Part shown: positions 3,870-39,062 of the stretch, one piece after another | How positions within the stretch are numbered: the first letter of the stretch is position 1 | Layout of the letters: every line of letters starts with the position of its first letter | Source: Escherichia phage K1H | Sequence record: NC_027994.1 | Length of the DNA stretch: 41,632 bases | Reading direction: 5' to 3' (one strand) | The notes under the pieces: model-generated | What the model saw: the letters and a program-made list of their open reading frames with translations, nothing else | The model's database searches: none | What the model was told of the DNA's origin: nothing | Translations under genes and position numbers: made by a program

Positions 3870-4330
3870 TGATGGGCTTTTTCAAAGTAACTGATGTACC
3901 GTCACGTCGCGTAGTCCAGTACGCCCGCGTGTCTGGCTCTGGTGAGAACGTGGTGTTTATTGATGATGAAAGTGTACTCGGTACACCCGAAGACGATATG
4001 CCGTTTGCAGATAAAACCGGTATTGCGTTACCCGCGGCGGGCATGCTTTATGAAATTCCGTATCTGGCGGATGCAGGTGACGTGTATTTCTCGGTGCAAC
4101 CGAAAGACACCGAGCTGGTCGACGGTAGCGCCACCATCACCGTCGAAGTTAAGGCGGGTAAAGCGCCGTGTGTACTGACCTGGTACAAAGACGGTAAGGA
4201 AGTGGTAAACGCCCCGGAAGAGGCTTTGTCTCTAACGGTTAATGCAGTTGGCGAATACTTTGTTAAAGTTACTGATGCCGATGGTGTAGAGGCCGTAAGC
4301 AAAGCGGCGAAGGTTACTAAGCCAGAATGA
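3869..4330 (+). CDS. Hypothetical structural protein
   Basis: 153-aa ORF with ATGA-type overlap to upstream gene; followed by bidirectional terminator. Confidence 0.5.
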   Translation: MMGFFKVTDVPSRRVVQYARVSGSGENVVFIDDESVLGTPEDDMPFADKTGIALPAAGMLYEIPYLADAGDVYFSVQPKDTELVDGSATITVEVKAGKAPCVLTWYKDGKEVVNAPEEALSLTVNAVGEYFVKVTDADGVEAVSKAAKVTKPE

Positions 4331-4331
4331 T

Positions 4332-4359
4332 AAAAGGCCCCTTTCGGGGCCTTATTTTT
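4332..4359. terminator. Bidirectional intrinsic terminator
   Basis: GGCCCC-TTTC-GGGGCC with T-run on + strand and A-run (T-run on - strand) on the other side. Confidence 0.6.
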
Positions 4360-4361
4360 CA

Positions 4362-4463
4362 TCAAAGTTCACCATTCCCGCTATCTGCGTCCTCGACCCC
4401 GCTAACAGCCCACACAAACAATCCTAAATTAACCAGTAACACAAATGAAATTGCTACCATCAT
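4362..4463 (-). CDS. Small hydrophobic peptide (33 aa, MMVAISFVLLVNLGLFVWAVSGVEDADSGNGEL)
   Basis: Internal ATG of track ORF 4362..4553; GGAGG Shine-Dalgarno 4-5 nt upstream; own promoter (TTGCAG-17-TACTAT) and terminator; single predicted TM helix. Confidence 0.4.
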   Translation of the reverse strand: MMVAISFVLLVNLGLFVWAVSGVEDADSGNGEL

Positions 4464-4489
4464 AACCACCTCCACTATACGTTTACTTA

Positions 4490-4518
4490 ATAGTACCCTA
4501 TTATGTTGGTGTCTGCAA
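4490..4518 (-). promoter_or_regulatory. Sigma70-like promoter, class 1 (TTGCAG-N17-TACTAT) with embedded dyad TAATAG-N4-CTATTA
   Basis: -35 at about 4513-4518 and -10 at about 4490-4495 (minus strand); spacer nearly identical to three other class-1 promoters. Confidence 0.5.
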
Positions 4519-4559
4519 ACTATTTGTTTACGTATTCCAGTTATTCCACTCAATTGTAA

Positions 4560-4584
4560 ATGTTGGAATAAGCTATTCGAATAG
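4560..4584. repeat. Half-site cluster GAATAA / CTATTC / GAATAG plus ATGTTGGAATAA direct-repeat copy 1
   Basis: ATGTTGGAATAA (4560-4571) recurs at 5343-5354; CTATTCGAATAG is a perfect 12-bp palindrome (4573-4584) abutting a -35 hexamer. Confidence 0.6.
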
Positions 4585-4613
4585 TTGACTTTTCACCAAA
4601 AATGTGCTAAGCT
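4585..4613 (+). promoter_or_regulatory. Sigma70-like promoter (TTGACT-N17-TAAGCT with TGn extended -10)
   Basis: TTGACT 4585-4590; TG at -15/-14; weak -10 TAAGCT 4608-4613. Confidence 0.4.
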
Positions 4614-4792
4614 CCACCTGAGCTTGTGAAGTATGAACAAGCGACCGCGGCGCGGGCAGGTAACGGAGCGGGACGTAAGTCCTGAGTGTAGTTACGCTGA
4701 CGCGTTCGGAAGGGCCATACTCTATTGCTTGTGTAAAAAGTAACTGGTTTACTGAGATTACGCCGTTTCTATGTTTAAATGATAAGGACTAG

Positions 4793-4820
4793 CGCCCCGC
4801 TTTAAGGCGGGGCTTTACTT
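4793..4820 (+). terminator. Intrinsic terminator
   Basis: GC-rich stem CCCCGC/GCGGGG followed by CTTTACTT; the same hairpin sequence recurs inverted at about 34970. Confidence 0.5.
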
Positions 4821-4837
4821 ATCGAGAAAGGGGAAAC

Positions 4838-5224
4838 ATGAATCTTAAAGCAACTGTCGTAGCGGGAGCATGTTTCATCATCCTGGCTTACGCACACGGC
4901 ATCTACCAGTATCGCAGCGGCTGGAACGGAGGCCGGGCAAATCTCGTTTCGCAGCAACAGCAGAAAGCACAGGCTGAGTTAGCTAAGAAAACACAACGGC
5001 AGCAGCAGGATGAGTCGAAGGCCGCAGCCGCTGATAACGAAGGCAAGACGAAATCAGAGGTAATCACCCGTGAAGTCGTTAAGTACATTAAAACGCCTGG
5101 CCGCAGCGTGTGCACTTTTGACCCTGAGCGCGTGCAGCTCAAGTCCCGCGCCGTCGCAAACGCCAATTCCATCCCCGGATACGACGATGATGCAGCCGCC
5201 GTGCAAACTGGCACTGCCAAGTAA
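4838..5224 (+). CDS. Rz: i-spanin (Rz-like)
   Basis: 128 aa; N-terminal TM segment, Q/A/K-rich coiled-coil periplasmic domain; contains overlapping +1-frame lipoprotein ORF; AAAGGGG SD upstream. Confidence 0.75.
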   Translation: MNLKATVVAGACFIILAYAHGIYQYRSGWNGGRANLVSQQQQKAQAELAKKTQRQQQDESKAAAADNEGKTKSEVITREVVKYIKTPGRSVCTFDPERVQLKSRAVANANSIPGYDDDAAAVQTGTAK

Positions 5225-5333
5225 CGACGCGGACGAGGATTTAGCTATTGACGTCCAGAACGCAGAATGTGTACGGCAACTGAGACTTAAAGTGTTCATG
5301 TTGCAGGATTACGTGAGGAATATTCTGGAATAG
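5070..5333 (+). CDS. Rz1: o-spanin (Rz1-like outer-membrane lipoprotein)
   Basis: +1 frame inside and beyond Rz; signal peptide with lipobox LSAC, proline-rich mature region. Confidence 0.7.
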   Translation: MKSLSTLKRLAAACALLTLSACSSSPAPSQTPIPSPDTTMMQPPCKLALPSNDADEDLAIDVQNAECVRQLRLKVFMLQDYVRNILE

Positions 5334-5342
5334 TTGCCTTGT

Positions 5343-5367
5343 ATGTTGGAATAATTTATTCTTGACA
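5343..5367. repeat. ATGTTGGAATAA direct-repeat copy 2 plus palindrome GAATAA-T-TTATTC and TTGACA
   Basis: Second copy of 12-mer; 13-bp palindrome 5349-5361; TTGACA 5362-5367 without a convincing -10; followed by hairpin AATCCGGG-TGGC-CCGGATT. Confidence 0.55.
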
Positions 5368-5412
5368 TGTAAATCCGGGTGGCCCGGATTCCAACGTCCA
5401 GGGGACATACTG

Positions 5413-13000: not shown

Positions 13001-13028
13001 AATTGTTCCCTCAGTAAGTTACAGGTGA

Positions 13029-13057
13029 ATAGTACCCTATTATATTGGGGTGTGCAA
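13029..13057 (-). promoter_or_regulatory. Sigma70-like promoter, class 1 (TTGCAC-N17-TACTAT) with dyad GAATAG-TACC-CTATTA
   Basis: -35 at 13052-13057, -10 at 13029-13034 on minus strand; 34-bp segment nearly identical to 35234-35268. Confidence 0.55.
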
Positions 13058-13164
13058 GTAGTGTGCTAGAATAAGTTTGCGCCTAGTGTCGCACACGAAA
13101 AGCGGGTGGTTCCCGTCTGGCGCATTAACCTTAACCCGTAACCTCTTAACCAAAGGATTAAAGA

Positions 13165-13581
13165 ATGAAACTTTCTGATTTTTATTTTGCTGACCGCCAC
13201 GCTGCTGGTACTAAAATGCCTATCCTTCTGCCGAGCGGTAAAGACTCCGGCGAATGGTTGCAGGTCATAGGCCCTGATTGTGATGCAGGTGTTCGTGCAG
13301 GCCGCGCCTACACAACGGCAATTAGACGCCTTACGGAAGAACTCGCGCCATTAGATAAAGAGTGTGAGGCGCTGAATAACTGGGCGCGCTATAACGACGA
13401 GAAGGGCTGGCGGGTGATGGACCTGAACAAGCAGCTTGCCGTGGAAATCGTCACCGGTTGGTCATTCGATGAGCCGTTCAGCAAAGAGGCGCTGGCTAAC
13501 CTGTTCGACCAGTACAGCGGACTGGCAGAAGCTGTAGTTAAGCACCACACCGATAGCCGCGAGAAACTCTCGGAAAAGTAA
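13165..13581 (+). CDS. Tail assembly chaperone (lambda gpG-like by position)
   Basis: 138-aa acidic protein upstream of tape measure gene. Confidence 0.5.
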   Translation: MKLSDFYFADRHAAGTKMPILLPSGKDSGEWLQVIGPDCDAGVRAGRAYTTAIRRLTEELAPLDKECEALNNWARYNDEKGWRVMDLNKQLAVEIVTGWSFDEPFSKEALANLFDQYSGLAEAVVKHHTDSREKLSEK

Positions 13582-26014: not shown

Positions 26015-26314
26015 CTAACTATAATAGCTAGCTATTAGGTCGTCAACCTGTTTAAACGAACCAACGACAAAAACATTCGCACCACGTTTACGCATCCGCT
26101 CATGTTCCCGTAGCTGGTGCGGGTCTGGCTTCGTGTTCTCGTCTTTCTTAACCTCGACGAACCAGACTATGCCGCCGGGGAGAATTACCAGCAGGTCTGG
26201 GGCGCCGGAACGCCCCTCGTAGGAGAGTTTGCGAACGAGGCCGCCAAGGGCCTCGAATCGGTCTTTTGCGTATTTCTGTACGCGGCCCTCTTTAGTCATG
26301 AGCGTAGATCCCAA
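26015..26314 (-). CDS. VRR-NUC domain nuclease (putative)
   Basis: PD-(D/E)XK-like ...PDLLVILPGG...VEVKK; likely true start is the ATG 5 codons in (ATGA overlap with upstream small ORF). Confidence 0.55.
   Translation of the reverse strand: MGSTLMTKEGRVQKYAKDRFEALGGLVRKLSYEGRSGAPDLLVILPGGIVWFVEVKKDENTKPDPHQLREHERMRKRGANVFVVGSFKQVDDLIASYYS
26018..26046 (-). promoter_or_regulatory. Sigma70-like promoter, class 2 (TTGACG-N17-TATAGT) with perfect 16-bp palindrome TAATAGCTAGCTATTA
   Basis: Minus-strand -35 at about 26041-26046 and -10 at about 26018-26023; overlaps 3' end of VRR-NUC gene. Confidence 0.55.
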
Positions 26315-29571: not shown

Positions 29572-29600
29572 ACTATAATAGCTAACTATTCAGGTGTCAA
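29572..29600 (-). promoter_or_regulatory. Sigma70-like promoter, class 2 (TTGACA-N17-TATAGT) with dyad TAATAG-CTAA-CTATTC
   Basis: Minus-strand -35 at 29595-29600, -10 at 29572-29577. Confidence 0.55.
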
Positions 29601-31717: not shown

Positions 31718-31747
31718 ACTATAATAGCGAACTATTCACGTTGTCAA
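31718..31747 (-). promoter_or_regulatory. Sigma70-like promoter, class 2 (TTGACA-N18-TATAGT) with dyad TAATAG-CGAA-CTATTC
   Basis: Minus-strand -35 at 31742-31747, -10 at 31718-31723. Confidence 0.55.
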
Positions 31748-34844: not shown

Positions 34845-34873
34845 ACTATAACACCCACAATAGCCAAACACAA
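34845..34873 (-). promoter_or_regulatory. Putative minus-strand promoter (TTGTGT-N17-TATAGT)
   Basis: TATAGT -10 as in class-2 promoters; 23 nt upstream of AlpA-like ATG. Confidence 0.35.
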
Positions 34874-34877
34874 CCTA

Positions 34878-34905
34878 TTGACAAAATAAAATGTAGCTGT
34901 AAAAT
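34878..34905 (+). promoter_or_regulatory. Strong sigma70-like promoter (TTGACA-N16-TAAAAT)
   Basis: Consensus -35, near-consensus -10; faces a 390-nt region lacking any ATG. Confidence 0.55.
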
Positions 34906-35236
34906 CAATGTATCGAAGGACCTTAATTCAGAATTACTTAGAAACATCATTCTTAAGTCTCGGGTACTTAAAGCCCCGCCCTAAAGCGGGGCGCTAAACA
35001 GTACTCTTGGTAACGTTAGTATCTAAGTTTCCTCAAAGTAACAGCAAGTAGCAAGAAAGCCTCCGTCTATTTAAATTTTACCCTCCTTCATAAGCTACTG
35101 ATAATTAAAAGTTTCTATAGTTGCCGTAAGCGAGGTAGAGAGTACTTCACTCCGCTGGGGTGGGCTAACGCCCACCCACTGCGTTGCGTACTCCTTTAAG
35201 AAACGAAAGAATCACAACGGCAACGTAACTATTCTC

Positions 35237-35267
35237 TTGCACACCCCAACATAATAGGATACTATTC
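35237..35267 (+). promoter_or_regulatory. Sigma70-like promoter, class 1 (TTGCAC-N17-TACTAT) with dyad TAATAG-GATA-CTATTC
   Basis: -35 35237-35242, -10 35260-35265; about 30 nt upstream of first early-right gene. Confidence 0.55.
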
Positions 35268-35299
35268 ACTTATCGGAACGAGACAGAGGAGTGAGGGTT

Positions 35300-35706: not shown

Positions 35707-35909
35707 TGCGAATCCGTATAACTGACCGCAGGCTTATCCGTATAACTGACCGCAGGCTTATCCGTATAACTGACCGCAGGCTTATAGATTTCGGTATCTC
35801 GGTAGGTGATGTTTTTCCGGCGTTCAGCATCAACCATTATGGTTTTATGATTGAGTACAAAGGGTCGTTATTGTTCGTGTATCGGGATGAATGTGAGGTT
35901 CTGGTATGA
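35706..35909 (+). CDS. Small protein with triplicated RLIRITDR peptide repeat
   Basis: 67 aa from ATG 35706 (TAATG overlap, GGAGG SD 10 nt upstream); N-terminus encoded by three perfect 24-bp tandem repeats. Confidence 0.45.
   Translation: MRIRITDRRLIRITDRRLIRITDRRLIDFGISVGDVFPAFSINHYGFMIEYKGSLLFVYRDECEVLV
35712..35785. repeat. Tandem direct repeat, 3 perfect copies of 24 bp (ATCCGTATAACTGACCGCAGGCTT)
   Basis: Read directly from sequence: copies at 35712-35735, 35736-35759, 35760-35783, followed by a 2-bp partial copy. Confidence 0.9.
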
Positions 35910-36562: not shown

Positions 36563-36569
36563 AATTTAC

Positions 36570-36600
36570 TTGCACACTAAGATAGAATAGGCTACTATTC
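36570..36600 (+). promoter_or_regulatory. Sigma70-like promoter, class 1 (TTGCAC-N17-TACTAT) with dyad GAATAG-GCTA-CTATTC
   Basis: -35 36570-36575, -10 36593-36598; perfect 6-bp half-sites. Confidence 0.55.
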
Positions 36601-36628
36601 ATTTACACAAGCGAGAGGGGAGACAGAG

Positions 36629-39012: not shown

Positions 39013-39033
39013 TCTATTTTCTGCAATGACTAG

Positions 39034-39062
39034 TTGACTATTACTCTTACACCAATTATATT
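39034..39062 (+). promoter_or_regulatory. Sigma70-like promoter (TTGACT-N17-TATATT)
   Basis: Right after terminator, about 35 nt upstream of small gene at 39096. Confidence 0.5.

Follow-up and report, generated by a model that had tools for sequence, protein, structure and literature searches.

In phage lambda, the late leader transcript starts at the PR' promoter and gives a 194-nt "6S" RNA ending at the terminator tR', and late expression needs read-through of this site. RNase III hairpins are known in the early mRNA of T7, while DicF, P1 c4 and P4 CI RNAs are trans-acting small RNAs of phages or prophages represented in Rfam. The putL and putR RNAs of phage HK022 are structured antiterminators of ~70 nt with two stem-loops; they bring about factor-independent suppression of downstream terminators in cis and need the beta-prime zinc-binding domain (PMC9378689). 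The present study concerns a locus of Escherichia phage K1H (NC_027994.1; the whole record of 41,632 nucleotides is referred to here as the window), in which a conserved module resembling a transcription unit codes for a structured non-coding RNA and not for a protein, just upstream of the spanin gene Rz. The Guernseyvirinae (Kagunavirus, Jerseyvirus), to which carriers of the module belong, are among the most frequently isolated phages of E. coli and Salmonella and are used in therapy, in biocontrol cocktails and as synthetic-biology chassis. As in lambda, a promoter is followed by a short, apparently terminated leader and by late genes, with Rz beginning 24 nt past the hairpin. As with put, two stem-loops, P1 and P2, would lie from +3 of the predicted transcript, P1 being nearly absent from the commonest class of the RNA.

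The structured RNA and its distribution

The initial annotation of this region had described a palindrome, a promoter, some 200 nt lacking a convincing open reading frame (ORF) and a hairpin just before the Rz ribosome-binding site, and all these elements are present where it placed them. It had proposed either a small RNA or a regulated leader. What the two have in common is borne out, namely a non-coding RNA supported by covariation and probable transcription of Rz through it; between action in cis and in trans this result makes no choice. The RNA and the ORF overlapping it comprise the following elements:

4620-4727, + strand: structured RNA core, 108 nt (covariance model match, covariation)
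4622-4642, + strand: P1, 5' hairpin, 4622-4627 pairing with 4637-4642, extendable via tandem G.A pairs
4645-4709, + strand: P2, long irregular hairpin of ~23 bp, separated from P1 by a two-base linker
4710-4727, + strand: conserved single-stranded tract, AAGGGCCAUACUCUAUUG
4728-4793, + strand: A/U-rich 3' part of the RNA (96.8% identity to SP-101)
4633-4743, + strand: 36-aa ORF, a "hypothetical protein" in some records, judged on comparative grounds to be no gene

The first clue to structure came from phage Ec1-ASingh, whose divergent copy (82% identity) differs at positions arranged as compensatory pairs. Word scans of IMG/VR, metagenomes and GTDB genomes yielded ~100 copies, all on Guernseyvirinae-like contigs of ~41-45 kb (the GTDB scan giving a single contig, from a metagenome-assembled genome). 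The copies sort into several sequence classes; six, folded singly, show one shared architecture, and across seven classes the fold is maintained through compensatory changes. A MAFFT alignment submitted to RNAalifold, without any model, recovered P1 and the lower part of P2. The P2 helices are CCG/CGG, then, after a bulged C, GGCGCG/CGCGUU, CAG/CUG and GUAAC/GUUAC; the upper part consists of an internal loop, GGAG/AGUGUA, and the apical CGGGAC-GUAA-GUCCUG, a 6-bp stem whose loop is variable. Tandem G.U pairs and a bulged G also occur in P2. The single-stranded tract that follows is invariant and can be written UUCGGAAGGGCC...UCUAUUG.

A covariance model built on this fold has a single match in the window, at 4620-4727 (133.9 bits, E = 5e-30), and 96 in related loci; a second model gave zero false matches in 449 kb of unrelated viral DNA. 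In the model-based alignment made before the most divergent class (J, see below) was included, standard pairs filled 96.7% of cells, 7 pairs had changed on both sides, and 59 cells showed double changes vs 14.5 in shuffles; sliding by 1-3 columns left 31-38% paired. Once the J class was added, both-side changes were seen in 16 of 29 pairs, with 95.5% of cells paired, 121 double-change cells vs 30 in shuffled alignments, and 29-38% pairing in the slid controls. G.U pairs are conserved at several positions, at two of them in 35 of 37 sequences. Because these would be C.A mismatches on the opposite strand, the + strand is the RNA strand. Judged by these comparisons, 4620-4727 encodes a structured non-coding RNA.

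Columns invariant in all classes read ACCGCGG..GC and GC.UUCGGAAGG.CC, then U.UAUU, and map to the P2 base and, just 3' of it, a purine-rich tract. Distal P2 drifts with compensation, and P1 is nearly gone in the J class. This distribution suggests that the P2 base and its tail form a recognition surface. A third small hairpin (AGGG/CUCU), seen in single-sequence folding, was dropped because its closing pair is not kept among variants. No structure with covariation support was found in 4728-4793, where the block AGAUUACGCCGUUUCUAUGUUUAAAUGAUA is patchily common to the J class and to copies at a second site.

The ORF at 4633-4743, annotated as a hypothetical protein in M01, Bas70, fBC-Eco01 and others, is the sole ORF inside the unit, and the view that no convincing gene lies in these 200 nt is upheld. 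Its ATG, which lacks a Shine-Dalgarno sequence, falls in the P1 loop, 13 nt from the predicted transcription start. Neither start codon nor frame is conserved among homologues: the ATG is lost in 12 copies, and 1-nt indels in relatives cut or recode the product to 9, 17, 19, 22 or 34-41 unrelated residues. Five classes carry such truncating (9-22 aa) or recoding indels, with the RNA fold nonetheless preserved.

At gathering thresholds, Rfam 15 gave 0 matches in the whole window; with E up to 10, the 4450-4900 interval produced only noise, at no more than 16 bits vs thresholds of 35-75. No tRNA or tmRNA was found. The literature searched holds no description of the RNA and no transcript data, the one Kagunavirus transcriptome paper in it dealing with annotated genes only. 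The unit is a previously undescribed RNA family of the Guernseyvirinae, misannotated as a small protein in some records.

A megablast search with 4300-4900 matched 179 phage records, all from Guernseyvirinae siphophages of E. coli or Salmonella (Kagunavirus, Jersey-like), which hold classes a-e of the RNA. Rz homologues turned out to come from far more Salmonella phages than the blastn matches had implied, and in the sequence preceding Rz in Ent2, celemicas and Kenya-K50 the model picked up the J class (38-43 bits, E ~1e-8). This class, found in Salmonella phages, is much more divergent and is the commonest of all, with 269 records by blastn. The sum of 448 records vs ~451 with an Rz at least 60% identical indicates that the RNA adjoins Rz in nearly all of these genomes, essentially throughout Kagunavirus and Jerseyvirus; in the loci read, it always lies directly upstream. 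Between 4585 and 4837, identity to Jerseyvirus SP-101 is 94% in the promoter, 98% in the core, 97% in the 3' part and 96% in the hairpin, vs 85% for the Hoc-like gene, 80% for Rz, 68% for the head-morphogenesis gene and less for scaffold and capsid (flanks 39-85% overall). The RNA unit is the best-conserved DNA of its neighbourhood.

Among 5,426 complete E. coli genomes, searched for host mimicry, there was no match, the sole "plasmid" match being a 44-kb Kagunavirus genome. The second model gave no significant match in Serratia phage Tsm2, Klebsiella phage 2 LV-2017 or Cornellvirus SP-049. Long hairpins are nevertheless present upstream of Rz in Tsm2 (L144 1380-1500), followed by CAUUCGGAAAG, and in SP-049 (L159 1035-1130), followed by GCAUUCGGGAG and ACCGCGCGGAAGGGUC; these sequences resemble the invariant tract.

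Some Kagunavirus genomes hold a second copy, 78-82% identical and ~11 kb away, between a leftward helix-turn-helix (HTH) gene and the rightward early operon. It has the same promoter and its own terminator-like hairpin, and sequence classes have been exchanged between the two sites. A second matching place occurs in up to 43 of the 179 records, and a second, diverged copy may be present in about a quarter of Kagunavirus records. In the window the covariance model finds no second core; the equivalent site, 34,870-35,090, is occupied by a different insert, and the shared 3' part alone is kept (35,090-35,200). Within this insert (34878-35090), which may be an antisense or small-peptide module, lie a promoter close to consensus (TTGACA-N16-TAAAAT), the pre-Rz terminator repeated in inverted orientation (34969-34996, 96% complementary to 4790-4817) and, on the minus strand, a very short ORF preceded by the Shine-Dalgarno GGAGG. 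In class c, the 3' part of second-site copies contains a (CTCA)n microsatellite of ~3 to 7 units across phages (L052 ~4290-4330, L057, L060, L086, L099). A candidate third copy at the tail-operon leader (13070-13170), based on shared 9-10-mers, was rejected, as it has no model match and folds no better than shuffles.

Predicted promoter, operator-like sites and the hairpin before Rz

In gene order, the RNA unit comes after the genes for a head-morphogenesis protein and a Hoc-like decoration protein, a bidirectional terminator at 4334-4353 and, on the minus strand, a short cargo ORF, and precedes the Rz/Rz1 spanin genes, the scaffold protein gene and the major capsid protein gene. The elements on either side of the core are:

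4532-4571, + strand: operator-like half-sites GTATTCCA (4532-4539), TTATTCCA (4541-4548) and, inverted, TGGAATAA (4564-4571)
4573-4584, no strand: perfect 12-bp palindrome CTATTCGAATAG, abutting the -35 motif
4585-4613, + strand: predicted sigma-70 promoter with extended -10: TTGACT (4585-4590), 17-nt spacer, TG (4605-4606), TAAGCT (4608-4613)
4794-4822, + strand: GC-rich hairpin, 8 bp, GCCCCGCU-UUAA-GGCGGGGC (4794-4813), with tail UUUACUUAU
4827-4833, + strand: Rz Shine-Dalgarno AAAGGGG (read from the sequence)
4838-5224, + strand: Rz, i-spanin gene (ORF list, Bas70 annotation)
5070-5333, + strand: Rz1, o-spanin gene, overlapping Rz (ORF list, Bas70 annotation)

As a single-sequence pattern, the promoter is not above chance; a generic scan did not list it because the -10 motif fits TATAAT at just 3 of 6 positions. 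The extended -10 promoter of the initial annotation owes its credibility to the pattern of conservation. The -35, TG and -10 are fixed in ~50 distinct copies, in contrast to the spacer, the nucleotide following TG and the 6-nt discriminator, which vary. Invariance restarts exactly at G4620, 7 nt past the -10, which is the canonical +1, and we infer that transcription starts at this position. The fBC-Eco01 record has a predicted host promoter annotated at the same site, and the J-class counterpart reads TAGACT-N17-TGnTACGCT.

The cluster of half-sites upstream, also noted initially, is real and is conserved along with the unit. TTATTCCA occurs 4 times in the window vs 1.04 expected, and the same arrangement precedes the homologous promoter in Jerseyvirus SP-101, Ent2, Kenya-K50 and Cornellvirus SP-049. 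Both the a and J classes and Cornellvirus retain the half-sites, despite a poor -35 in some of them (TAGACT, TGGATT), which suggests that 4532-4571 is the site of a putative phage DNA-binding regulator. The palindrome next to the promoter is kept in site-a copies of classes a-e and is replaced by CTTTATTCAAAAAG in the J class. Its right half makes up, together with the -35 motif (AATAGTTGACTTTT, 4580-4593), a one-mismatch AATAG-N4-CTATT site. Inverted repeats of this type (at most one mismatch) number 12 in the genome vs 0.99 expected, and by this measure they are a genuine operator family of the genome.

Several observations bear on this family at large. Exact repeats are found at 4489-4502, 13028-13041, 26023-26036, 29577-29590, 31723-31736, 35253-35266 and 36586-36599, and one-mismatch sites at 4580-4593 and 39029-39042. 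Each of the seven exact repeats coincides in part with the spacer or -10 of a strong sigma-70-like promoter (types TTGACA-N17/18-TATAGT and TTGCAC-N17-TACTAT), and the set looks like the operators of one phage repressor. There is also a family of four near-identical ~30-nt promoters, TTGCAC/G-N17-TACTAT, with a conserved spacer, at 4489-4518 and 13028-13057 on the - strand and at 35237-35269 and 36567-36601 on the + strand. The first of these, reading from 4518 to 4489, is divergent from the RNA promoter and would serve the cargo gene of the minus strand. At 5334-5390, ahead of the scaffold gene, TGTTGGAATAA, present elsewhere only at 4561, lies within a GGAATAA-T-TTATTCT palindrome beside TTGACA and is followed by the hairpin CCGGGTGGCCCGG; this site and the RNA promoter may have a common regulator.

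The hairpin reported at the end of the unit was recovered as the top-scoring terminator-like site of the region (-17.2 kcal/mol, z = -3.6 for 4794-4822). Its U tract, though imperfect, is usable, and the hairpin would act as an intrinsic terminator and provide the expected 3' end of an RNA of ~200 nt. Its stem covaries, from GCCCCGC to GCCCUGC/GCAGGGC in L005 and to GCCCGGC/GCCGGGC and GCCCGAC/GUCGGGC in the J class. The J-class tail, UUAGCGUAU, has no U tract, and the hairpin of that class is hardly a terminator. Every class read has a stable hairpin 10-15 nt before the Rz Shine-Dalgarno, too close for a further promoter to fit in between. Here, the 24 nt separating the hairpin from the Rz ATG include the Shine-Dalgarno and leave no room for a promoter of Rz's own. 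A weak promoter-like site inside the unit (TTTACT-N16-TATGTT, ~4747-4776), near the equivalent of which fBC-Eco01 annotates a predicted promoter, was discarded: it is not conserved in the J class, and one a-class variant has lost the key A. Since no promoter fits in the gap and the internal candidate is unconserved, Rz is most likely transcribed through the structured RNA. That the J-class hairpin is kept by compensation without a U tract favours a leader as the ancestral role, and we infer that the RNA was ancestrally the 5' leader of the spanin message.

The neighbourhood shows some further features. The cargo ORF (4362-4463, - strand) encodes a small hydrophobic product, MMVAISFVLLVNLGLFVWAVSGVEDADSGNGEL, behind a strong Shine-Dalgarno, GGAGGTGG, and occupies a hypervariable slot between the Hoc terminator and the RNA unit; in other phages this slot holds a Dam methylase, a sliding clamp, endonuclease VII or other small ORFs. 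Rz1 lies in another frame than Rz, overlaps its end and carries a lipoprotein signal, LTLSAC; in several public records the only form annotated is a shorter one, of 47-48 aa. Elsewhere in the window, 35712-35785 contains three perfect tandem copies of a 24-nt unit, ATCCGTATAACTGACCGCAGGCTT, with iteron-like spacing, just inside the early region and near the switch between leftward and rightward transcription.

Possible roles of the RNA

The reading we favour, while giving it no better than an even chance, is that of a structured cis-acting leader of the spanin/head operon, leakily terminated in this phage. As no conserved promoter lies between the RNA and Rz, the RNA is most likely an obligatory 5' leader of the Rz-Rz1 message, and would probably also head the message of the scaffold and capsid genes that follow. 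A DNA-binding protein acting at the TTATTCC/AATAG half-sites would time the firing of the promoter. On many transcripts, host RNA polymerase would stop at the U-tailed hairpin, giving an RNA of ~200 nt ending at ~4820, while the remaining transcripts would read through and allow spanin expression. The folded leader would work in cis on its own transcription complex or transcript, setting the passage of polymerase past the hairpin and later terminators, or else the stability or translatability of the spanin message. In such a scheme, the invariant base of P2 and the purine tract would be the likely contact surface for a conserved partner, whether host RNA polymerase or a different host factor that E. 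coli and Salmonella have in common.

Several points weigh against this interpretation. Because the alignments used for covariation were fitted to the model, their pair counts are biased toward structure. The minimum free energy (MFE) of the whole 208-nt RNA is not better than that of shuffles (z = -1.2), and MFE folding of the J class alone does not yield P2. The start, the 3' end and the read-through are all deduced from the DNA. No obvious switch exists, as no alternative pairing that would join the core to the hairpin came to light. The extreme conservation could stem in part from frequent recombination at the edge of the cargo hotspot. Finally, the second copy of some Kagunavirus genomes is self-contained and sits in a hypervariable cargo slot remote from Rz. 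This portability of promoter and core is the main argument for a role in trans.

According to this alternative, which we consider possible and clearly less probable than a cis-acting leader, the terminated product of ~200 nt is the functional molecule and read-through into Rz is incidental; the RNA would bind a protein of the host or phage and so titrate it, or would base-pair with an mRNA of the host, via UUCGGAAGGGCC...UCUAUUG. The unit has its own promoter and terminator, as in a classical small RNA gene, and its diverged paralogue, which some phages carry in a cargo hotspot at another locus, has the same promoter, with classes shuffled between the sites. Conservation is highest in the single-stranded tract and the helix base, as in protein-binding RNAs, and the identity of the RNA in phages of E. 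coli and of Salmonella would be in keeping with a conserved target in the host. Against this, the commonest (J) class has no U tract after the hairpin, and no discrete small RNA is expected there unless by processing; in the present phage the U tail is short and interrupted, unlike that of Hfq-type small RNAs. The conserved tract has no complementary site in the phage, where the longest complementarity to the RNA, 11 nt (4727-4737 with 36602-36612), is at chance level (~4 expected). The 5' untranslated region at 36602 was rejected as a pairing target on this count and because the part of the RNA concerned is not common to other classes. The strict synteny with Rz in ~448 genomes would also be unneeded for action in trans.

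Going further than a leader of unspecified mechanism, the RNA might represent a new structural class of factor-independent, polymerase-modifying antiterminator, like put in function and unrelated to it in sequence. This proposal is speculative and rather unlikely. Host RNA polymerase would be carried through the hairpin and later terminators of the spanin and head genes in these virulent siphophages, the second copy, where present, would do the same for the early operon, and the invariant P2 base with the GGAAGGGCC tract would be the polymerase-binding surface. If this is true, phages would have a second kind of antiterminator made of RNA alone, where only one is known.

A role in RNA processing or stability is somewhat more doubtful still. 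P2 would be an RNase III-type site, and protection of the processed messages would fall to the hairpins at the 5' end and before Rz. The length of P2 and its central asymmetric internal loop agree with this, as do the location of P1 at the extreme 5' end and the retention of a stable hairpin before the Rz Shine-Dalgarno even where it is unable to terminate. RNase III sites, however, need neither an invariant single-stranded tract nor an invariant helix base, and P1 is nearly absent in the J class.

Action at the DNA level, with the RNA functionless, appears very improbable. The block could be a recombination anchor, given that it adjoins the hypervariable slot, or a transcription-primed replication origin; conservation reaches into the unstructured 3' part, and at both sites an A/U-rich stretch follows promoter and core. 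Yet the compensatory changes and strand-specific G.U pairs point to selection on the fold of the + strand RNA, and the promoter elements are conserved as in a working promoter. GC skew was dismissed as an origin indicator, since it merely tracks gene orientation. A metabolite-sensing riboswitch governing the downstream hairpin has hardly any claim: the order of structured leader, terminator-like hairpin and gene would fit, but Rfam gives no match even with E relaxed to 10, the core is essentially one long hairpin with no multi-helix pocket, some 65 nt separate it from the pre-Rz hairpin with no competing antiterminator pairing found, and the J-class hairpin is not a terminator. Least of all can a small protein gene at 4633-4743 be credited, intact as the ORF is in the commonest a-class sequence and annotated in several GenBank records, as the loss of ATG and frame in relatives and the lack of a Shine-Dalgarno, described above, contradict it.

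The most conserved non-coding element of the Guernseyvirinae is at present missing from annotations or labelled as a 36-aa protein, and is a candidate for a new RNA family. An RNA that gates the spanin/head operon would offer a handle on late-gene timing in these phages, as the annotation of Bas70, a curated relative, names no RNA polymerase or antiterminator gene. Payloads inserted beside Rz or in the adjacent cargo slot should spare the RNA unit.

Comparison with known systems

The closest parallel in layout is the PR'-tR' region of lambda, where a sigma-70 promoter, a non-coding transcript of ~200 nt and an intrinsic terminator likewise precede the lysis and late genes. The genes downstream here are only the spanins and head genes, with holin and endolysin elsewhere. 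The 83 annotated genes of the curated relative Bas70 include no antiterminator such as lambda's Q, although the window's small proteins were not searched with profiles and a divergent factor may exist; just two HTH regulators are named there, and no RNA polymerase gene. The leader itself, unlike that of lambda, is supported by covariation and is the most conserved sequence of its region, and in the commonest class its hairpin has no U tract.

With DicF, c4 and P4 CI RNAs, the unit has in common a free-standing organization from promoter to terminator over 100-200 nt and the occurrence of paralogous copies. It differs from them in its strict synteny, its poor U tail and the lack of an Rfam match or of target complementarity in the phage. 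As to Hfq-type features, the tail is UUUACUUAU (in the J class, UUAGCGUAU), a conserved single-stranded tract is present, and no target was found in the phage. The riboswitch type of organization is not seen: there is a single long hairpin, no Rfam match, and no competing pairing on inspection.

P2 resembles the RNase III hairpins of T7 in being a long, irregular hairpin that spans about two helical turns, has an asymmetric internal loop at its centre and lies in a phage leader that would be transcribed by host polymerase; the predicted fold has 23 pairs including wobble pairs and an internal loop of 4/6 nt. The T7 sites differ in having neither an invariant single-stranded tract nor an invariant helix base.

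Homology to HK022 put was rejected, there being likeness neither in sequence nor in structure. When models R1 and R2 were run on HK022 with filters off, the best score in the PL/PR region was 5 bits, a partial match of 15.6 bits (E = 0.13) lying elsewhere, and reading the putL region disclosed no similarity. The core described here measures 108 nt and not ~70, the J class can do without P1, and not all genomes have the second copy. The resemblance is one of design. In both cases an RNA with two stem-loops would emerge from about +1 to +3 of a sigma-70 promoter with terminators downstream, and two diverged copies can be present in a genome, heading rightward operons. The RNA is identical in phages of E. 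coli and Salmonella, which a partner common to both hosts, RNA polymerase for instance, would explain.

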